Assembly (NCBI GenBank): GCA_905178155.1
Contig: CAJINV010000002.1
Coordinates: 5,932,476 to 5,996,475 of the forward strand
Source: Amoebophrya sp. A120
Lineage: Eukaryota > Protista > Dinoflagellata
Reading direction: 5' to 3'
DNA: 64,000 nt
Below, one piece after another: positions 16,889 to 60,827 of the stretch. Each line of letters starts with the position of its first letter. The stretch's first letter is position 1. The notes under the pieces are model-generated. The model saw only the letters and a program-made list of their open reading frames with translations, made no database searches and was not told the origin of the DNA. The position numbers were made by a program, and so were the translations under genes.

Positions 16889-19800
16889 TCAGATTGAGCC
16901 GGCAAACGCAGCCATATTCTGGAACCGCAACACTGCAGCATCGAACGCTCGGACGTCTTGCCTCCCTACAGTTCCTCCACCTGGACCTGCAGAGGAGGCT
17001 GCGCCTGCACCGCCTGTGGACAATACTGTTCCGTTGAAGAAGCCACTCACGGCCGCACTTGATCTTTCCTCGTGCATCAGTTCCTCCCCGAGTGGGTCGG
17101 TGTTTGCTGGCAAAACGCCGTGCAGAACCTCTACGGCTTCGCGAATGCTCTGGTGCTCGGTTTGTGGCGGTTTTATTACAGGCGACGGCTTTATTTGCAC
17201 TGGCTTGGCGAAAAACGAATCCGGATTTCGGTTCGAAGGCAACATGTCTTGGAGCTTGTGGGAAGAAGAGGCAAACGAGTTCTTGTTTCGGTTCACTTTT
17301 CCCGTGTTGCGGTCCGTGGGCGGACACCACTCTTCCAGGTGCAGAAACCGGCTCAGGCTGGAGGTAGTGGGAGTAGTTTTTGATCAGACTTATTTCATCT
17401 TTTATTTTCACACAACACAAATTCCAGTGTGCACCTCAAACTTTTGACCGATGCTACGAAAACGCAATACAGTTACGGAAAAATCCATCTATCATAAGTA
17501 CCCAAAATCCGCCTCGTCCCCGTCCGGGTCCACAGTCATGTGCGAAATAATTTTCCCCTTCTGCAATTTCGTCAGAAACGGAGACTTCCGGAAGTCGACC
17601 AGCTGTTTGTTGCTGGCGCAGTACCAGACGCCCACGTCTTTGCTGCACTCGATAAAGCAGTTCACGATGAGATTCACCAGTTCCTGATGGGTTTCCATCG
17701 TCGTCATCACCGACATTTTGGTGATCTGAATCGGCTGGATCCCGAGGAAATCCGTTTCAAAGGTCGGCTCCGGCGTTTCAAAGGCGTTCCTTCTCATCTT
17801 GTACTTCGGATCTGTGGTGTATCCAGACGGAGAAATCACTACCGCAGTACACACCCGTTTTCAGTTGCAACGTGAGCATGGTCGTGACGTTGATTCTTCT
17901 ACTTGCATCAACGAAGGAGCTGCAAGATTTTTCAGATCTGTGTTTCACAAGTAATTTAAGTACATACAAGTGTGATGAAATAGAGACTACATCGATGAAA
18001 CTTGTGATGCATTGATTTCGAGCGTGTGCTGTGATAGATTTGCGTTGAATATGTTGTCCAGCGTTTTCCCCCTCCGTCGTGCGTGGTCACCTGGCGGGAA
18101 AAGGAAATCATCAGGCCGCCCGCTCGACGTCGTAGTCTTGCTCTGTCGTATATCCACTGCAAGAGTATCGCGCTCGTAGTCATTGCAGTTGTGCATGACA
18201 AGTCTCACGGCACTGATCTGGTACCTGATACCGCATGACAAACTGCGTTTTCCAGATTAGTAAAAGTTCTGCTGGTGCACTTTGAACTACAGCCAGTAAG
18301 TACGCATACCAATAATAGCCGCGTCCGCGGAGGTAGTGAGGTCATGGCGGTCTTTTTGTCTTCACGCCAAAAAAGGACGCAACTTCTCTGCCCACCATGC
18401 CATCGTGGGTAATGTTATGCACGACGGCACGGCGGTCGCTAAAAATCTCAATCCAGAGGCGGCCTCCTTTTGGTTTCGAATCGAAAAGCCTTCCCCGCAT
18501 GCTATGGCCCCGCCAGGGCCCGCGCCAGGGTCGGCCTCCTGGGAGCCCCAAATCGGGCCCATAGCATGCGGATTGGCTTTTTGCTTTTGGCGGACTTTGT
18601 TTTTTTTGTTTTTTTTTGTCAAAATGCCGCATCTTCTGGCCTTCAGTCCGCCTCTGAAATGGCGGATCTTGAAGGCGTCTTGTGCGGGGCCCGGATGTGG
18701 GGCAAAATCAGGCCCATACCATGCGGATTCGCTGTTTTTTTCGGAGCGCTGCTTTTTGGGCGCCCATTTTTGGGCGCCCCAAATCGCCAGAAACTAAGGC
18801 GGTGGGCGCCTCAGAAGGGCGCCCCTTTTGCCGGCTCCCCTGCGTCGTTTTATCCAGTGCGAATCGATAGTTTTCGACCGGGCTTGTTTGCTATCAAAGC
18901 CCCGGGCGCTTGATAAATGGAAATTTTTTATGCCCAAAAACACTTCCGGCCGCTTGGAAACTGCCGGTCGTTTTGGATAAGACATGTCAAAAAGATCGCT
19001 AGGTTAGAACGTTCGTGACCTCACTACATACGATAACGATACTTGTACTTTTGCAATGCATAATGCGCTCCGCCCTCTTCTTCTTGAAACACTAAATCCT
19101 GCTGCTTTTTTTCCGCCAACGCGTTCTGGTACAATGCGTTCTTCGCCGGATCCGCCACGTTCGCGGGATCCAAGGTCGGTTTCGGCCGCGCCTTGGCCTC
19201 GGCGCTCACTTTCGCGACCTCCTCGCGGTAGTTCTGCAGGGCCACCGAGTCGCACAGTGCGTGGAGCAGGCAGCTGAAGGCGATTTGGCGAATTTTGCTG
19301 AACCGGGGCAGGGCTCGCTGCAGCGTGGAATGGATTTCCGGGAGCCGGAGCAAGTGGATCCGCCGGAAACACTCCCACACCGACCCCTTCATCAAACACT
19401 CGTAGAGTTCCAGGTCGATGCGCTTCCTTGCGGTTATTGTTTGGCTGTCCACAGCGGCGCGACCAGTTGACATTCTGGGCGGCCTGCTGGACGAGGAGGA
19501 GGGTCTAATATTATTGTTGGCGAACGCTGAAGACGAGGTCTTTATCGTCGTGAACAAATTTTTTGTGTTGTTCCCCGTCCTGGCCAGCGCACTCCCAGGC
19601 CGCTGATGGGAGATCGGGAGATAGTATGACCCGCTCAAACGTCACAATCTCAAACGTTGCAATAGAATATGGAAATCTGTGATGCAAGAGTGCATGATCT
19701 ATGCAATTCTCATAGGATTGCGCATGACAAGTGCCGGAGCCTCAAACCCCACTACAATCATCTGGCAAAATTTGTATTGCAAAAGGCGAAACGCTGCGCG

Positions 19801-44231: not shown

Positions 44232-46763
44232 ACGGAATCAAAAATGATGTCGCGGCCGGCCGTGTGCTACTGACTATGAAGAAAGAGTAGTACTTTGTTG
44301 TACTTGTTCTTTTTACTGACAGAAACAACTAGAACAAGTATTTTGCACCACCAGTTTCTCTTGACAATTTTGACTTGGCCTCAAAATGCTCCAGTACTTA
44401 CTTCATCACTCGTCGTTCAATAAACGGCAGGGAAGTAGTAGTAGTTGATACTCAAAGTGGACTCCATGTGGTTGGGTTTGAAACCTCTGCGAAAAAATTT
44501 AGTGTGAGATAGTTTTCTGTCGCTGTCTCAGAGCGAGAATTACTACTACTGGTCTGCCCGGAGGCATCTAAGCAGTTGGCATCGAGAAAAAAAAAAGTGT
44601 GCCCCGGCAAATACCTACAAAACAAAAATTTAAAGTTGACCGATTTTCTTATTTTGCGAAAAAAGCGATCTTCATGAGAAAAAGGTACATTGAGAAGACT
44701 TTATTCACCGAAAAATCAACCGACACTTCTAAGGACTTACATTTATATTCATGTGCGCAGGCGCCGGCACGCGCGCAACGAACACAAAATAGGAGAAGCT
44801 GCTTCGAGGGCGGCAGAGCTCTAGCCCAACGCCGTCCCATAGTTCCGGACGTTTTTATTTTCATACAAAGCAGACACTGGGATAACAGGTCAAGAAGCTC
44901 TAGGTCACTCGGTGGAGGTCTTCAAACATAAACTAAAACTGTATAATTTCGTCGCTGGTAGATATCGACGACAAAATCTGTCAAACAGAATTCAACCGAC
45001 TCGTCATTCTGTCGCCTCGAAACCACGAATTTCTCTGGTGCGTTTTAGATTCTGTAAAATCAAACAAACAGGTTGTTCAAGAAAATCATCTTCTTCTAAA
45101 TCCAAAGTCGCCGAAGATTAATTCTTTTTCAAATCGAATTCAAACCAAATTCAAAACTTCAATGTTTCAGGTCCTCATGGTGCCACTGGACACCTGTGGC
45201 GAGGGTCAATCATTTTGCAAAAAAAGTCAGCAGCTGACATGCCTCACCACAGAACCTGACCCAGGTCTGGTCGTCATCCCAAGGAGTGCGCGCTTTGGTT
45301 CCAATAGTCGCAAGCAGACTCCCACTACTCATCGCCCGCTCCTGGTGTTGTACCGCTCGCACACCATCCTCGGCGAGCATGTAACGTCAACGATCTCACC
45401 GAGCGCCCTCCGCCGGTTTGTGAAAGGAAAGCGCCAAACAGAGCCTAGCTCACCGGGAACCCCTCCCGCCGGCCGCAGGCAGCAAGGGGCCGGGCCGCGG
45501 AGGTGGGAGACACCACATCCAAAGGCCACACTACACGAGGGGGCTACACTATGCTACTCGCCCGGGTGAATATGAAAAATGATCGCCCAGCCTTTAGGAG
45601 GGCGCATTGCTTTTGTTGCAGGGCGAGAAAAGAGACGCCTGGCCCTTCGGTTACCACCGTCGCGGCCCGCGCGCGTCGAACTCCCGAGACCACCATGTGC
45701 GGAGCAGCAACTACCGCAGAGACAATAAATCTCCCTGAAGCAAGACAATTAGCCACGCAGCGACAGCATTGGGCGTGGGCGACCACACTCACAAGCGAGC
45801 CCGGCGGCCTCGCTTGTCGGGCTTCCAGCCATCCATTCCAAGCGATGCCACAGGCCTTCGCGCTTCGATGCGCTTTGCCAAAACACGAAGAAGGACACAG
45901 GGCGCGCGGCATTGCTAGCCCTAGCTGGCGAATGAAAGACGAATATTGTGCGCGCGCGCAGCGCGCGCGCCCCCAGAATACCTTTGCCGCTGCTGCTGCG
46001 GGGGCTACCTGGCGGCATTCATGCATGCTGGCAGTCGAGTGGCCCAGGCCCTAGAGTCAAGGCGTGGCTTCGCCGTCGAAACCACGAATTTCTCTTGTGC
46101 GTTTTAGATTCTGTAAAATCAAACAAACAAGTTGCTCAAGAAAATCATCTTTGAATCAAGTGAAGTGAAGTGAAGTGAAGTTGAAAAGATCTCCTTTCCG
46201 AAGCTTGCGCCCTCGTCCAGAGATCCCGGCACTGTTACGCCGTCCCACGGAATCAGATAGTTTTGCATGCAACGTGGAACAGACCTAGGTGGGTTTAAGG
46301 ACCCAGGTGGCATTCGAGAGACCCAGAGAGAGGACCGGACGCAGGAAGAGCAACCACTGATGCTAGAGGCAGTGGACCTACGGGCGCTCCCCAGTCCCCC
46401 TCCAGGGATCCGGACTCCCCTTGGGACACATGGAAAAACCGAAGGCAGCTGAGGTGCACGCGCTCAGCTGTCAGACAAACCGATGATACCCCTTCACTGG
46501 CAGGAAGTCCCTCAAGGTATCACAACACTTCCGGGGGGAAGCGGCAAACCGCCTTACCTACATACGTACCGACGAGAACTACATGCTGGCCAGGCAACTT
46601 AGAATGGGAAAGCTGGGATAACTTACCAACCCGGAACAAGAAAAGATAACAACTGACCACCGCAAGAGGCACCCTGCTAAAAAATAGTAAAAGCCGCCCG
46701 CGGGCAAGGACTAACAGCTTAAAGGTAAGGGGGGACTCAGCAGCAAGCAGACAGAACACGACT

Positions 46764-46911
46764 TATCCTGTGCAAAAGTATCGCACTCGTAGTAATAGCA
46801 ATCCTGCATTACAAATTTTTTCCGACGGTAAATCCGCATGATAAAATTTATTTCCCACGCTGAAGAAATTTGTAATGCATTTATACGAGTACGATACTCT
46901 TGCAATGCACA
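46764..46911. mobile_element. Introner family B inside array spacer 2
   Basis: tatcctgtgcaaaagtatcg...cgatactcttgcaatgcaca, perfect TSD cgact. Confidence 0.88.
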
Positions 46912-47469
46912 CGACTAGACTGACTACCACGACGGCACAATGCACCACCGAAACCGAATATCCGAACTGAGCGATGACACAAAGAAGAAGAACCCATGAA
47001 ACACGACAAACATAAACACCACGTAGGGGGGACATCTAATCAGCAGGAAAAGTGCTAGAGACTGCCCGCACATCAGGGACAAGAGCAGCACATCTTTTCC
47101 CGCCGAATTTGTAAGCAGGCGTGCAATATTCTAAACACAATGAACCAGAACTGTACCTGGGAAGCCAAGGTAACCAAACAGCGAGTTTTTCTGGTGCGTT
47201 TTAGATTCTGTAAAATCAAACAAACAGGTTGTTCAAGAAAATCATCTCTTTCAAGATTGAACCGCCAGGGTCCCTCGAAAACCCAACGGACAGACACCAC
47301 GTCCGCCCAAAGCCACGACGCATGGGGCCAACGCAATTCCATTTCCAAGGCGGCCGAGAGGGCCCAGATGCACCCTCTCCCCTCGATTGATCGGGCCTGA
47401 TTGGTGCCTAACATAAAACATATCATGCCACAGACCACACCAATACCAGAGCGATCACGCAGAGTGCCC

Positions 47470-47640
47470 AATTTCAAAAGGAAATTGGCGGGCCTAAGCA
47501 ATTTCAAAAAGAAATTGGCGACCTGAACGGAATTCAAAAAGAAATTGGCGGGGTTGATGGAATTCAAAAAGAAATTGGCGGCCCCGAGACAATTCAAAAA
47601 GAAATTGGCGGATCTGGGCAATTTCAAAAAAAAGTTGGGA
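47470..47640. repeat. 30-bp-period tandem repeat (5 full + 1 partial unit)
   Basis: Constant a(a/t)ttcaaaaagaaattggcg followed by a variable ~9-10 nt. Confidence 0.9.
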
Positions 47641-49558
47641 ATAAGTTGGAGACAAGTTCAAAATTAGTTGGGTCAGGGATTCTTAGTATGGGAAACAGAA
47701 AAAAGTTGGCTTCCAACTTATTTCCAACTTTTTTTTGAATCTGGCGAAGGGAGATTCCTCAAGACCTGGATCCTCTTGAGTTGGCGTGCTTTACTGCATG
47801 CCCCTTCAAGTACGAAATCCCCCATCCGAACCGCTGTCGAGAAGCCTTTCGGCGTGAAGGTCGACCCTATCAATGCCCCGCAAGCTACGCCCCAACACCC
47901 TGAAAGGAAGAGGGGCAGGAAGCGATCACGAATGAAAGCCTTTACACAAAAAGCGCGCATCCGAAAAAATAAACCCAAGCCCCGCTCAATTTCACGGAAA
48001 AATGAAAAGTGCGTCTTTTTGAATTCCTTTTGAAATCATTTTGCATTGTTTTTAGCATAAGGCGCTTTGGAGTTAATCGAAGCCACGAATTTCTCTGGTG
48101 CGTTTTAGACTGTTCTGTAAAATCAAACAAACAGGTTGTTCAAGAAAATCATCTTCTTCACCGAGGCCAGGGCCTTCAGCCAGGCATTGCCATTGGTGGC
48201 AGGCAGGAGCCTCCGTTCTCCTGGTTGTGGGCAGAAAAACCGCGATGAGCGAGAAACCCCGCACTCATGCCCCGCCGGCCCGGCTATGTTCCTTCCAAAA
48301 TCCATGTAGCAAACAGCGCCAAGATGCAAGCATCCCAGAAAATGTCAACACCTCAACCGGTCACCCGCAGCTCCCGGTCAACACCTCAACCGGTATTTGA
48401 GGCCAATCACCCGCAGCTCCCGGTATTTGATGAGGCCAACGCGTCCTCGAGATCCAAAACAGGGAGCGGAACAACAGGAGGGCGAAACCATCTACATCCA
48501 CCAAGCCAGCCCAGCACATGATCGCCTGAAATAGAGGCGCCCGCGCGCTGCACCTTCCGACGCAACCTCCTGACCGACGGCTCCAAAACAGGGGCGACCA
48601 GACCCAGCGCTGCCTGGCCTATAACACCCAAGGCCCACTTGCACCCGACCCGGAATTAGGACCCCCTGACGGAGAGGGGAGAGCTACACGTAGCGGCGCT
48701 TGCTACGTATGACGCCTGTCATTGACAATTCTGGTGCGAAATGGAGATAGCTACGAAAGCCAAACCAGGGCACTGCCGAGGCTAGCATGCCGACCAGGAA
48801 GCCCGTGCCAGAACAAATACGGGCGGAAAAGAACTCCAGAGCCGCTGCCCAAAAATGTGAAAGAAAACCTAACCCAAAGATAGCCCCACCAAAACGCCTT
48901 GCAGTTTGTAGCGAAAGTAGTTTGCCAACCGACACAAAGAAAGCACCCGAGCAATTCCTTCCAGAAGATGAGACACCGGCGGCGCGCCGCCCAATCCAAA
49001 AGCCGCCCAGGCGCCTGGGTTTGTAATCAGAGTCCGAAATTGCCAAGAGAGAAACTTGCTTGGTGCGTCGCTGAAACTCCGGCACACGGCCTCGTCGTGC
49101 CAAAGCTGAAATGCCAAGCCCCCTAGTACCCGGCCACCTCCTAGTCTGACCCCCCGGATACAGAAACCGCGAATTTCTCTGGTGCGTTTTAGACTGTTCT
49201 GTAAAATCAAACAAACAAGTTGTTCAAGAAAATCATCTTCTTCACCGAAATAACAAACATGCGCGCTCGTCTGCTTCACCGAAATAATGAAGAGGCTGAC
49301 ACGTCAAAGTAGGTTGCTCAAGGCGAGTAGCCAGGCGCAATTCGCGATGGGCGAAGAGCTCGCCCGAAGTCCCCATCTTTCCATCTGTGCACGTTGCAGA
49401 AGTTGCGTCTTCCTGCCAACCGCTCAACTTTTCACAAACAGGAAGGGAGGCCAACCCAAATTCGCCAGCAGCCTCAGAGGCCAACTGATTAGAAAAGGGA
49501 CCGGCCCGCTGGCGGCAGGCCGGTGCCTTTCATCGACAACCCCAGACTGCGGCCGGGG

Positions 49559-49697
49559 ATTTCAAACGACAGTCGGGAATTTCAAACGGCTAATCGAGAT
49601 GCCGGCCATTTTCAAACGGTTGATCGAGAATCTGGCCAATTTCAAACGGTTGATCGAGATTCTGGCCAATTTCAAATGGTTGATCGAGATTCGGTCA
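49559..49697. repeat. 30-bp-period tandem repeat (about 4 units plus a partial)
   Basis: Unit aatttcaaacggttgatcgagattctggcc. Confidence 0.9.
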
Positions 49698-50845
49698 AGA
49701 GTTGGTCCAAACTCGGTCCAAATTTGGTCCACATATACGTATCCGTGTCTGGATCAATTTTGGATCAAATTTGGACCAAGTTTCCTCTCCGGCAAAATGG
49801 AGTGGCGAATCAACCAGGACTGCCCGCGAGGGAGCGCATCCAACTCAGAAATAAAGCAGTCCACGCACCAGCGCCAATCAGCCATGTTTTTGGCGTGTCC
49901 CAATCTCCTTACGCCGCCCGCAGCTATTGCGAAGCTTCTGAAAGCTTCGCGAGAAGCGACCACGGCGAATTGCTTCTGTGTCTCGCCAAGTGCGGCACAC
50001 ACCAAGGACCGGCCGAGCCCGCGGACGCGGGCATGTGCTGACATGTCATGTGGAATCCTACACGGCCCCAGTGGGGGCCGCGCATTTACGCAACCCCTAC
50101 CCCTCACATACACTCCAAAAGCCGCCCGGGTGCGCGCCATTTGTGGCGCTTGTGCGTCGAAATGGGTCGATGACGGTAAGAAAGGCGCACACAACGCGCC
50201 GTCAGACTCGGCCACATCGAGAGCTATCTAAAAAAGCGAAGTAGAAAACTGCGCGCTGATGCCTTCCTCTGGGCGCGCGAAATTCGACTTGAATCGGCCA
50301 CGCGCGCTCCGTGATTTATTTCTGCCGGGCGGCGGCAAAGCCTGAAGTTCCAAACTTTTGAAATTGATTTGAATTGCGTTGCATTTACTTTTAACGCCGC
50401 CTGCTTCTGAGTTAATAAAATCAAACAAACAAGTTGTTCAAGAAAATCATCTTCTTCAAACAGGAGCGAAATTTCATCGAATCTAGGATTTTTTTTATCG
50501 GAACTACAGGTAAAGGGTCGCTGGGAGCTACAATCTCAATTGGCTAAAGATATCGCATCTTGCTGGAAATCTTCTCAAAACTAGCTCACAACCATCAGAT
50601 CAAAGATACAACACCTCCCATAAACTCGCGATCTCCTGCGGCTGCGCTTTCGAGAGAAAGTAGGTGTACTCACTCTTATCTCATGGTGAACGTTTTGTCG
50701 TGTGATCCCCGTCGTCATCAAGGTCAAAACTTCAACAATCCGTTTAGTTGTAGAACTAGGATTTGGCTTAGGCTTTTGTTCTCAACGAGTTCTTCGTCTG
50801 TGGTAAACTACTTATTCTCTTTTTCTGTCCCATCATAATTCTTCA

Positions 50846-51337
50846 TCAGAAGAAAGCCGCCACTTTCTTCTTGGTTTGCTCATCCATTTTCGATGATGAA
50901 TTTGAGCCACACACTAGCTCGTCTTCTGCCGTATGATCTTCCGTTCGGCTGGTGTCGTTTTCCTCCATCGCGGCAGCTTTGTTCACAGTCGTGGTCAGAG
51001 TCAGTTTTACTCGTTTCTCGTTCTTCGGGAGGGCGAAATTTGGGTTGCTGTTCCGGACGATTTTTTTCTCACCGTCTAGTTGTACCCCGTCCTGCTCGTT
51101 GTCGGAGTTCGCGTCCTGGAAGTCTTCGTTGTGGTCGTCATCTCCACCTTCACCCCTGTTTTCCGAACCGGAAGACTTCATGTACGAGTACACCGCCGCG
51201 GCACCTGCACCCACGGCCAAAACCGGGGCGGCAGAAAGCATCGCTGATCCGCCGACCACCGCAGCAGCACCACTGGCGACCGCGGAAGCGCAACCCGGTG
51301 CGCACATGCCGGCGGCGACTGGAATTAAAGCGGCCAT
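50846..51337 (-). CDS. Small hypothetical protein with an Ala-rich hydrophobic N-terminus and an acidic middle
   Basis: Single ORF from ATG 51337 (MAALIPVAAG...), co-oriented with its neighbours. Confidence 0.5.
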   Translation of the reverse strand: MAALIPVAAGMCAPGCASAVASGAAAVVGGSAMLSAAPVLAVGAGAAAVYSYMKSSGSENRGEGGDDDHNEDFQDANSDNEQDGVQLDGEKKIVRNSNPNFALPKNEKRVKLTLTTTVNKAAAMEENDTSRTEDHTAEDELVCGSNSSSKMDEQTKKKVAAFF

Positions 51338-59032: not shown

Positions 59033-60827
59033 GTTCGTTGCGCTTCTTTCTTATCATGGGATATACTCCTATGACGTTGTGCGGACTTCTTATGTACTTT
59101 GGTGCCCTCATCATGATCGGCACAAACTGGACCGAACATTTTGCATTTTCTGGACCACTACAACTCGAGTCCCCCGTCATCCGAAGTCTTCTAGTTACGG
59201 CTACTCTACTACACCAACACCATCACGGCGACCTGTTTTTCGTGAGACAGGTTGGCAGCGGGCGGGGAGGTAAAGCTGGTCCCTTGCCGCCATGGCTTCA
59301 TGGAAGTTCTCAGCCCCCACGCGCTGCTGGGCGATCACCTTGGCGGCATTTCGCTTGAAATTTTCGCCGTCCCCTGGGACGGCGACCATCCAGCGCGACG
59401 ATAGTGAGAGCGGTAGCGCCCAAGGGAGTGGCCTCATGCCAAAGCTGGCAAGCGGAGACAATGCGGGCGCCGCAGAGAATCTGCATCAGGCAAAGGGCTG
59501 CTTCAAGGAGGAGGGGCGCCCCGCTGGCCATTCCAGGGCTTGCTACGCCCAAAGTGTGGGGCCCAATCCGTCAACAGGCTAGGCACACCCACCCCGCGCA
59601 GGGTCGGTGGCGCGCAACTACGCAACCAAGGGCGGGGCCGGGAAAGGGCGGCCGGGGGGCGCCGCCATCGCATCCCGACACAAGAATCCGCTCCGAGCAA
59701 GCTGGCTCGCGCGGAGGGCCGGCGCCGGCCGGCCGAAGGGAGGCAGTGGCGCGCCCTGCTTCAGGCGCCTGCTGCCGCTCCCGGCGCGTCTAATTCATTG
59801 CCGCCCGCCGACCTCCGGGCGCGGTTCCTTGTCCCATGCGGCTACGTTGGTCCTGTCGCTTGCATTTGGCGGGGTGCGTGCTTTCGATGACCCGGCGCCA
59901 CACGTGCCACCCCCGCCATTTCTTGCGCCCCACCGACCGCCCCCACCCCGGGAGCATAAGCCAGGGCAGACGCTCCTTGGATAGATCCACCCACCCGGCC
60001 CGAAAGCGTATCCGTCACTCACGTCGCCGCGTAAGGCGTCACGGAAGTTGGGGCACCGCGTCAATGCTCCCTGCACCCACGAAAGCGCGACCGCCCTTGC
60101 ATTACCGCAGTCGACGCAAGTTCTCCACACGAAAGGGCCACAAACCCTGTAAAGTTTCCGCGCCCGCTGAGGTTGGGCAGCTCTCTCGGCGCCTGCCACC
60201 GACTCGCAACACCATGCCCCGCAAAGGCGCGCCAGGCGCAAAACGCTCGGCCTCCTTCTGTGTCTCCTCGATCACCTGGCAGCATTGCTCCCAGGCGCGC
60301 GCGGCATCTGCCCCGGTGGCGAAGATTCGGGGCGCCCCGCGAAGTGCTCTGCTTCAAAAACGCCGGGCAAGCCGGTGGCACGCAGCGCGCTGCCCTGCTT
60401 CTGGAACAGTTGCGACGCCCGCTCTGCTTGTTGGCTACAATACCACGCGATCAATCGCCAGGCCAGCGAATGATGTTGCAGCCGAGTTACAAACTACAAA
60501 CGCAAGGTCTATGAAATGGCACTGGCAGCAGGACGAGAACACTCTCCATGGATGGATGCAGGGCGAAAAACAAAAATTACAGGGCGTCCGTCTCTGTCGA
60601 GAGTTTACTTACTTGAAGATATCTGGCGTCGTTGCTACACCTTGTTTCCATGCAGGTCAAGTGTCGGAATCGATCATGAACATGATTCCTATCCAGTCAG
60701 CAACTTTGATTCGGTGTACAACCGGCGGCGGGTGAAGGGGTTCTTGGCTTTTCTTTCAATTTCACACTCACGTCCCGCAACATCCAAATCTATGCATCAA
60801 GACACCAATACATAGTGATCGATGTTC

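Follow-up and report, generated by a model that had tools for sequence, protein, structure and literature searches.

Probable serial insertion of five different elements at one 3′ UTR site in Amoebophrya sp. A120, with likely removal of the stack as a single intron

DNA transposons usually duplicate 2–13 nt of their target on insertion. The trypanosomatid elements SLACS, CRE and CZAR make a long target duplication at each insertion; they enter the multicopy spliced-leader RNA gene in one orientation and encode a reverse transcriptase. CRISPR arrays alternate repeats of about 23–55 nt with even-sized spacers of about 20–70 nt.

Tandem insertions in which neighbouring elements are separated by a target copy are described for Drosophila R1 arrays and P-element dimers; in these, one family repeats, 8 or 33 nt are duplicated, and R1 occupies multicopy rDNA (sections of PMC5932611). 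In the passages of the other papers on which we draw, the Helitron2 elements CRe-1, CRe-2 and CRe-3 of Chlamydomonas, which are non-autonomous, usually make duplications of 7–19 nt and occasionally of 44–443 nt (PMC3627910), the related HINE/DINE-1 elements carry central tandem repeats (PMC4067079), and the LINE Dualen leaves duplications that exceed 50 bp in over half of its insertions (PMC9977147, where a 126-bp duplication is cited for R9). The non-canonical introns of Amoebophrya average 120–240 nt, and U1 snRNA was not detected in Amoebophrya, according to the part of PMC7789003 used here.

Layout of the array and its repeat

The window, meaning the whole stretch of 64,000 nt analysed, contains six copies of a repeat, X, all in one orientation and 43–85 nt long, alternating with five spacers of 0.83–1.17 kb. 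These are copies X1 (45012..45096), X2 (46070..46152), X3 (47176..47247), X4 (48077..48160), X5 (49163..49244) and X6 (50416..50458; 43 nt, identical to copy X5 over its length). The outer copies join unique flanks, and copies X2–X5 each sit between two elements. A 26-nt core pattern of X matched six times with no mismatch and never in 100 shuffles, which bears out the six co-oriented copies proposed in an earlier note on this DNA. In pairwise comparison the copies differ by 0–7 substitutions over 37–75 columns. All four differences between copies X3 and X1 fall within the first 14 nt of copy X3, which may be assignable to spacer S2 instead, whose right end may extend to ~47189. The earlier note had also held that neighbouring copies share variants; this stands for a 3-nt insertion in copies X4 and X5, but not for a G/A variant in AAACA[G/A]GTT that follows no order from copy to copy, copies 1, 3 and 4 having G and copies 2, 5 and 6 having A. 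The latter needs one recurrent change or a conversion, which counts against serial insertion.

Contigs or reads from 4 of the 11 runs listed were compared with the array. X appears to occur at this locus only, since the summed depth at 48110 was 244, roughly 5.5-fold that of unique unitigs (~44) where five local copies cover the base (a rough measure), and the loose-end consensuses at X edges (two among those listed) were letter-for-letter mixtures of local junctions. A scattered repeat clustered here by chance, which the earlier note had allowed for, is at odds with this depth. The X core was absent from the viral and metagenome contigs scanned, X had no Rfam match at E ≤ 5, and it shows no folding (z = −0.67). 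The junctions flank/X1, X2/S2, X4/S4/X5, S5/X6 and X6/flank are spanned by DNA unitigs that show 0 differences and have the depth of single-copy sequence; the order of the cassettes is unproven because short-read unitigs break within X. No other strain with X was found among the eight matching runs, which come from two studies and bear one organism label, and no empty (pre-insertion) allele was seen, which counts against serial insertion.

The spacer elements and their ends

Relatives elsewhere were found for four of the five spacers (S1, S2, S3 and S5). S1 (45097..46069; 973 nt), with an intact A end at its left, belongs to a multi-copy family: a diverged unitig over 45111–45565 had a depth of 145.9 compared with ~44 in unique unitigs, and an RNA-type record fits 45097–45437 with 1 difference before 458 nt of other flank. 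S2 (46153..47175; ~1023 nt), with an (AAGTG)n tandem repeat at its left end, has at least one further copy, its second variants being at depth 42–47. Nested in it (46764..46912) is an inverted-repeat introner/MITE of ~150 nt and very high copy number; most of the 4577 contigs from DNA run X1 map to this element and one similar element. S3 (47248..48076; 829 nt) has an intact A end at the right (...GAGTTAA) and a core (47473..47739) of 5.6 × 30-nt tandem repeats followed by a ~117-nt palindrome (fold z = −6.5). It is 85–89% identical to two relatives, L001 and L002, and internally deleted relative to L002; judged by alignment, S3 is a left-truncated, internally deleted version of a larger element. 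Another S3 copy stops at 48076 with a different flank. S5 (49245..50415; 1171 nt), with its intact A end at the right, carries 3.8 × 30-nt repeats (49578–49692) and a palindrome (49702–49783); in two other contigs the similarity stops at 50415, beyond which their flanks differ, and a relative of 1056 nt has core and end in common with it. S4 (48161..49162; 1002 nt) is single-copy in the DNA run, being covered by one unitig (48125–49199, depth 42.8), and it had no relative among the contigs of that run, a point against serial insertion.

The earlier note had called the spacers different in sequence, which is correct in that no two align along their length, as they would after an old tandem duplication. 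The difference is incomplete, however: S1, S3 and S5 share a homologous A end of ~80 nt that starts TTAA/TAAA, and the 11-nt motif AAAAGCCGCCC is common to S2, S4 and S5, its core having exactly these three occurrences in the window. No significant terminal inverted or direct repeats were detected inside any one spacer. The repeat patterns of S3 and S5 were not present in viral contigs, the phage collection contained nothing that matched the array, and Rfam gave nothing beyond sub-threshold miRNA-type matches on the two palindromes. A weak hit of S3 to Ribosomal_L23 (E = 2e-4, below the cut-off) was rejected, with substitutions spread 11/15/13 over codon positions and single-base gaps, and the motif C[CT]AGGG[CT]C, noticed post hoc close to the inner ends of three elements, was dropped as it is missing from the matching end of L001. 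We found no description of the array or the element family in the literature, although repeat libraries may still contain these families; four motifs were absent from 12 of the 14 supplements of PMC12130899, and one motif from one supplement of PMC7789003.

S1 lies in the opposite orientation to S3 and S5. In inverted orientation its left A end resembles the right end of S5 (z = 4.6) and of S3 (z = 3.6), both pairings being unmatched in 300 shuffles and ranking as the top 2 of 45 end pairs. Similarly, the left end of L001 matches the inverted right end of L002 (z = 20) over a terminal ~100 nt, and the A end is found inverted on either side of the same core (L001 compared with L002 and S3). One intact and one truncated end, a Helitron2 trait, is seen in S3 against L001/L002 and in L001 against L002, and S1 and S5 keep intact ends. 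Copies outside the array stop at 45097, 48076 and 50415 with other flanks and without X. L001, an S3 relative from another assembly and the one outside insertion readable at both ends, is a 1104-nt element between 36-nt direct repeats (3 mismatches) unrelated to X; one of these adjoins the A end, and the other adjoins the point where homology between L001 and L002 breaks off (chance ~1e-13). A 30-nt loose end in the DNA run matched L001 exactly, and the L001 family is therefore also present in this genome.

Because L001 has its own unrelated 36-nt repeats and copies elsewhere lack X, the best reading of X is a long target-site duplication that is regenerated at each insertion, the elements, which are non-autonomous, keeping one intact end. 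These observations agree with the earlier proposals of stepwise growth, with the repeat copied at each insertion, and of insertion that makes a very long target-site duplication. The duplications in the array are about 85, 58–73, 72–75, ~80 and 43 nt, and that of L001 is 36 nt. All five insertion events have one X edge in common (45091–45097 in the numbering of copy X1), a pyrimidine/purine junction; the bases preceding the duplication are T-rich in two of four readable cases, with no common target motif, and no tested feature accounts for the clustering of five insertions within a few bases. The A ends fold weakly (−0.7 to −3.5 kcal/mol). S2 and S4 have no detectable A end, which counts against a common mechanism. 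No additional A end was found within the window, and a GC-rich block at 59.2–60.5 kb has no flanking direct repeat.

The host gene and the probable splicing-out of the stack

The array lies inside the 3′ UTR of a minus-strand gene whose ORF (50846..51337; 163 codons) encodes an acidic, low-complexity protein with no family from the protein atlas. Besides this ORF, the array has a DAGK_cat gene and a RING-like ORF as neighbours; the earlier note had named the RING and kinase genes and missed the transcribed 163-codon gene, which sits between array and kinase. RNA-type contigs cover the host gene without gaps (50389–51440/51510) and then jump across the stack to a last exon (44858..45127, minus strand) made of 31 nt of the S1 end, copy X1 and the downstream flank. 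The segment removed, very probably a non-canonical 3′ UTR intron, is 5,261 nt long (45128..50388, minus strand; GT..AA, with a 2-nt ambiguity). It opens with GT, takes in five elements and four copies of X, and begins 458 nt downstream of the stop codon. The spliced product retains 27 and 31 nt of element ends plus 43 extra nt of target, copy X6 being kept in the upstream exon.

The joint 45127/50389 was present in both RNA-type contig runs, from two samples (depth 214.9 in run X3 and 77.6 in run X5), and in none of the joints listed for DNA run X1. Since the RNA-type contigs jump across it, the whole 5.3-kb stack is very likely spliced out as a single intron. The RNA status of runs X3 and X5 is the tool's guess and both come from one study, so the joint may instead be a DNA deletion in those cultures. 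Exact S4 pieces occur in these runs at low depth (3.2–4.9), consistent with unspliced precursor, and spacer RNA amounts to ~2–6% of exon depth. The raw-read RNA run X9 gave 4 reads at <90% identity, which say nothing on expression.

The first and last 60 nt of the intron pair at −41.5 kcal/mol, a value reached in 0 of 1000 shuffles and equal to the best of 1029 windows, with 35 of 41 pairs Watson–Crick. These ends derive from two separate, oppositely oriented elements, S1 and S5. Two inverted ends from independent insertions 5 kb apart appear sufficient to define an intron, which supports pairing-guided splicing and makes the locus a natural test of how non-canonical introns of the Amoebophrya type are recognised. 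It also indicates how transposons could gain safe havens through splicing of this kind.

Origin of the array and comparison with known systems

We propose that five different non-autonomous elements of ~1 kb inserted serially at one 3′ UTR site. Their parent elements would carry imperfect inverted A ends of ~100 nt. An enzyme supplied in trans would nick the target and join one intact A end, copying would proceed inward from that end and halt at a variable point, and a second nick on the opposite strand, 36–85 nt away, would create the duplication; the X edge at 45091–45097 is probably the recurrent nick site. Since S1 and S5 are oppositely directed, their A ends make up an inverted repeat that the organism's hairpin-guided, non-canonical splicing probably exploits, and splicing would keep the stack out of the mRNA and render further insertions nearly neutral. 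Precedents are described in parts of PMC3627910, PMC9977147, PMC5932611 and PMC7789003. Serial insertion with duplication is very probable, and the whole explanation, including the hairpin-closed intron that removes the stack, is likely. A DNA-level, one-ended enzyme (HUH/Helitron2-like) is our tentative choice over reverse transcription or repair, and falls a little short of an even chance.

Target-primed reverse transcription, with the elements as RNA passengers of a non-LTR retrotransposon making widely spaced nicks (Dualen/R9-like) and the A end as the RNA 3′ end opposite a 5′-truncated end, is unlikely. It would explain one intact and one truncated end, the variable long duplications known from Dualen (part of PMC9977147) and the pyrimidine/purine junction at the common X edge, and non-LTR elements are present in Amoebophrya (part of PMC7789003); but no poly(A) or shared simple-repeat tail is seen, the A end occurs inverted on either side of one core, a single target takes both orientations, and the internal 30-nt repeats and palindromes would seem more like DNA-binding sites. 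Quite unlikely is repair capture, whereby dispersed TTAA-ended transposons with inverted repeats were copied to patch a recurrent break at the X edge, or unequal exchange between copies of X piled up alleles that each held one insertion. The mixed orientations, microhomology of 10/14 nt at the S2/X3 junction, the unordered G/A variant and the internal deletion of S3 relative to L002 fit such repair, yet in S1, S3, S5 and L001 the exact stops at the A end suggest that ends were recognised, L001 has the same signature at an unrelated site, and stacking by exchange still requires independent insertions at one spot.

Very unlikely, in our judgement, is a host-run CRISPR- or integron-like trap in which an integrase archives mobile-element pieces at X as the repeat or att site and the intron, once excised, serves as a precursor for silencing. 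The repeat–spacer layout, the mobile families of the spacers, the gene-proximal position of the youngest-looking unit (X5 = X6) and the transcription and excision of the stack would suit it; against this, L001 shows the duplication signature without X, X does not fold, the spacers retain their own transposition ends and are scarce as RNA, and no recombinase, Cas or RT family was found in the 75 of 207 ORFs scanned. The chance that unrelated sequence was joined via a shared repeat during assembly, a caveat of the earlier note, is remote: unitigs do break inside X, but they cross most junctions without differences, and the RNA joint connects both outer ends of the array. Most improbable is a reading of X as a recurring micro-exon or a small RNA gene whose copies are set apart by diverged introns or spacers. 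X is open in one minus-strand and two plus-strand frames and its indel is 3 nt, but copies X2–X5 are skipped in RNA-type contigs, the host ORF ends well upstream of the intron, and Rfam gave no match to X.

A further reading, rather improbable, is that the elements belong to a class of eukaryotic mobile DNA not described before, which has TTAA ends, inserts by one-ended copy-in and re-cuts the edge of its own duplication, with a stagger clustered near 40 and 80 nt. If so, the stagger would correspond to about half and one turn of nucleosomal DNA, the site would act like a CRISPR repeat in accumulating unrelated elements, the host would mask the resulting array by splicing from one inverted element end to the other, and the 5-kb RNA so removed could be a silencing record.

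Together, these results suggest that a eukaryotic genome can build a CRISPR-shaped array without CRISPR machinery, by repeated insertion and long target duplication, and point to a mobile-element family with 36–85-nt duplications, far above the DNA-transposon norm. X is unlikely to be an att site, a spliced-leader gene or a CRISPR repeat. Its copies of 43–85 nt and spacers of 829–1171 nt differ from those of CRISPR arrays, and the contigs show the stack removed as one piece. A Pfam scan of 75 ORFs, from the 207 with ≥100 aa, gave no cas1/cas2 or effector family. The shared attachment site per cassette suggested earlier is not supported, as the elements occur elsewhere without X, the L001 duplication is different, and, unlike an integron site, X is not a palindromic fold; no recombinase family was found by Pfam in ORFs inside or adjoining the array. 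A spliced-leader-type target is likewise unsupported: the locus resembles SLACS, CRE and CZAR in its long target duplication at each insertion, but X is apparently single-locus with no Rfam match, not a multicopy RNA gene, the elements lie in both orientations, and they have no A-rich tail and no RT family in the ORFs scanned.

Like R1 and P-element tandems, the array has elements in a row with a target duplication between neighbours and repeated insertion at one site; unlike them, it has five different elements in both orientations, 43–85-nt duplications and an apparently single-copy site. With CRe and Replitron-1/N1 (parts of PMC3627910 and PMC10288648) it shares one intact end, a truncated or fuzzy other end and variable duplications, and it would share one-ended copy-in. 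In contrast to Helitron2, there are no terminal hairpins or 8–15-nt asymmetric inverted repeats, the ends being ~100-nt imperfect inverted repeats that start TTAA, and unlike those of CRe, all 6–7 duplications seen are ≥36 nt. A T-rich target, as in CRe, precedes the duplication in two of the four readable cases. No Fanzor or Rep gene was found by Pfam among the 75 ORFs scanned, out of 207 with ≥100 aa. Dualen likewise makes long, variable target duplications at insertion, but the array elements are non-coding and tailless, with inverted ends.

Like the Amoebophrya introners (described in parts of PMC7789003 and PMC12130899), the array intron is non-GT-AG, has paired ends and is of transposon origin, and small elements of the window begin TAT-N7-AAA, as part of PMC7789003 describes. 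An introner, however, is one repeated element with an inverted-repeat motif (TTA-RR..G or TAT-N7-AAA) and a boundary direct repeat of 3–5 nt, whereas the array intron is 5.3 kb long, lies in a 3′ UTR, is imprecise, consists of five elements and four X copies framed by the ends of two insertions, starts GTAAATGC, and has just 2 nt that fit either side. The known parallels of the array are R1 double insertions, the long duplications of CRe and Dualen, and the hairpin introns of Amoebophrya.

Layout of the array and its surroundings

The array (45012-50458) is best explained as five stacked non-autonomous elements with long target duplications between them, probably masked by a composite intron in the 3' UTR of a host gene. 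All six copies of the repeat (X1 to X6, 43-85 nt) claimed in an earlier note are present as described, and a 26-nt core gave 6 matches compared to 0 in 100 shuffles. Copies 4 and 5 have a 3-nt insertion in common, copy 6 matches copy 5 without a difference for 43 nt, and a G/A variant occurs among the copies without order along the array. The first 14 nt of copy X3 (47176-47189) contain 4 of its 4 differences, and a depth-73 unitig extends 10 nt into this copy; these bases may represent the end of spacer S2, joined by microhomology.

The five spacers (S1 to S5) show no alignment along their length, which rules out an old decayed tandem duplication. Nor does the repeat appear to be a scattered interspersed element. 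In the DNA sequencing run X1 (distinct from repeat copy X1), unique unitigs had a depth of 43-45, and the base covered by five local copies reached a summed depth of 244, approximately 5.5-fold, summed depth being a rough guide only; among the loose-end consensuses listed at the repeat edges, 2 of 2 were exact mixtures of the locus's own junctions. Zero-difference unitigs of this run span flank/X1, X2/S2, X4/S4/X5, S5/X6, and X6/flank, indicating that, within the tests made, the array is real rather than an assembly artefact. The repeat had no match in Rfam, and its predicted fold was not unusual.

The window is eukaryotic, and a phosphoserine aminotransferase exon has named matches that include dinoflagellate proteins (Symbiodinium 65%, Effrenium 64%). 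The host gene, a 163-codon ORF on the minus strand (51337-50846) with no Pfam family and no atlas relative, ends ~390 nt before the array. Many introner-like inverted-repeat elements of 150-280 nt, in several families and with a TAT-N7-AAA start, interrupt genes within coding sequence (9.9-13.2 kb, 20-23 kb, 39-43.8 kb, and 55-57.2 kb), and two of them draw thousands of run X1 contigs; TAT-N7-AAA is the motif given for introners of one Amoebophrya strain (PMC7789003). These features suggest that the DNA comes from a syndinian resembling Amoebophrya. A GC-rich intergenic element of ~700 nt (18328-19032) has internal palindromes and 17-nt terminal inverted repeats (TA-GTGAGGTCA ... TGACCTCAC-TA), the TA at both ends being possibly a TA duplication. 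A 1.3-kb block between genes (59230-60520; 62% GC), which matches nothing in Pfam and lacks flanking direct repeats, is possibly another insertion.

Spacers as mobile elements

The spacers are mobile elements. For S1, a diverged unitig reaches depth 146, and another, almost identical copy departs from the window sequence exactly at 45097; further variants were found for S2, S3, and S5, and S4 is single-copy. Other element copies end at 48076 and 50415, both in ...GAGTTAA and with different flanks. From its first base, the S1 left end shows homology to the right end of S3 and to that of S5 (S5 z 4.6, S3 z 3.6, the top 2 of 45 end pairs), and S1 therefore lies in the opposite orientation; we refer to this ~80-nt end, which starts TTAA or TAAA, as the A end. 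In both S3 and S5, a palindrome comes after a run of 30-nt tandem repeats. The 11-nt motif AAAAGCCGCCC, found in one orientation at 46689 (S2), 48998 (S4), and 50117 (S5) and nowhere else in the window, is a possible binding site. These element families may already be in existing repeat libraries.

S1 may itself be composite, since an internal piece (45750-45990) recurs at ~90% identity within another RNA-type contig (782 nt at depth 19), where unrelated sequence borders it on either side. At the left end of S5 (49240-49287), overlapping the end of X5, 14 nt (CTTCACCGAAATAA) are repeated 34 nt apart, a pattern that template switching may have left.

A search with the S3-repeat pattern returned two loci in another assembly, L001 and L002. 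The L001 element (1104 nt; 85% identity to S3 over 700 nt) has the A end at its start and is flanked by 36-nt direct repeats unrelated to X, the sole outside insertion readable at both ends. In L002 and S3 the A end is inverted relative to L001 and lies on the opposite side of the shared core (z 20), suggesting a parent with imperfect inverted ends, of which L001 kept the left and S3 the right, each being truncated at the opposite side. L001 also holds, at 708-1283 and 0.7 kb from the S3-family element, a 417-nt insert (67% GC, ~95-nt internal repeats) between direct repeats of 75 and 84 nt (79% identical), likely a second long-duplication insertion. In L002 (873-913), the A end overlaps the final codons of a minus-strand frame 483 codons long; both this element and S5 (n = 2 only) have the A end facing the upstream gene at that gene's 3' end.

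Probable removal of the stack from RNA

Contigs joining 50389 to 45127 were found at depth 215 in run X3 and 78 in run X5, two runs of one study that are presumed to be RNA and have depth following genes; the joint was not in DNA run X1. The skipped segment of 5,261 nt on the minus strand starts with GT and ends with AA, with a 2-nt ambiguity, and the cut points lie 27 nt into S5 and 31 nt into S1. Exact pieces of the single-copy S4 occurred in both runs at depth 3.2-4.9, as expected of a precursor. Pairing between the two terminal 60-nt stretches of the skipped segment (-41.5 kcal/mol) equalled the best of 1029 windows and was reached by 0 of 1000 dinucleotide shuffles. Paired ends are likewise described for Amoebophrya non-canonical introns (PMC7789003), but the pairing arms here come from two separate insertions.

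Proposed insertion mechanism and known systems

Direct observation shows that the repeat is local, that the spacers are dispersed and have precise A ends, that a long duplication is present at an unrelated site, that RNA-type contigs carry the joint, and that the ends pair; serial insertion of the elements is what we infer. Parts of X on both sides of each spacer measure about 85, 58-73, 72-75, ~80, and 43 nt, and the edge at 45091-45097 is common to all five duplications. Each insertion would attach one intact element end where the target is nicked, and another nick, 36-85 nt from the first, would leave the duplication behind. S5 is probably the latest insertion, and splicing across the inverted ends probably allows the site to tolerate further insertions. 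Duplication lengths in the array and L001 lie near 36-43 and 72-85 nt (n = 7, one ambiguous, too few for a test), close to a half turn and a full turn of nucleosomal DNA.

The array is very probably neither an integron nor a CRISPR locus, the readings put forward in the earlier note. The window has 207 ORFs of 100 aa or longer, and the 75 of them that were scanned include no recombinase, reverse transcriptase, transposase, or Cas family. From the note's suggestion of target-primed insertion with a very long target duplication, the long duplication stands, being seen also at L001, and reverse transcription is retained only as a rival. Reverse transcription with distant nicks may account for the duplications, for which Dualen provides a model (PMC9977147), or the elements may have been acquired by repair capture.

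For serial insertion, the closest precedent is the one-ended transposition with variable duplications of non-autonomous Helitron2 (PMC3627910). The elements would work like Helitron2 without being classed as such, because they lack its terminal hairpins and show no consistent T-rich target, the bases before the duplication being T-rich in 2 of 4 readable cases. Replitron-1 also makes duplications of variable length, but its terminal repeats are direct (PMC10288648). Arrays from repeated insertion are already known, and those described involve one family and short duplications (PMC5932611); here five different elements are stacked with long duplications.
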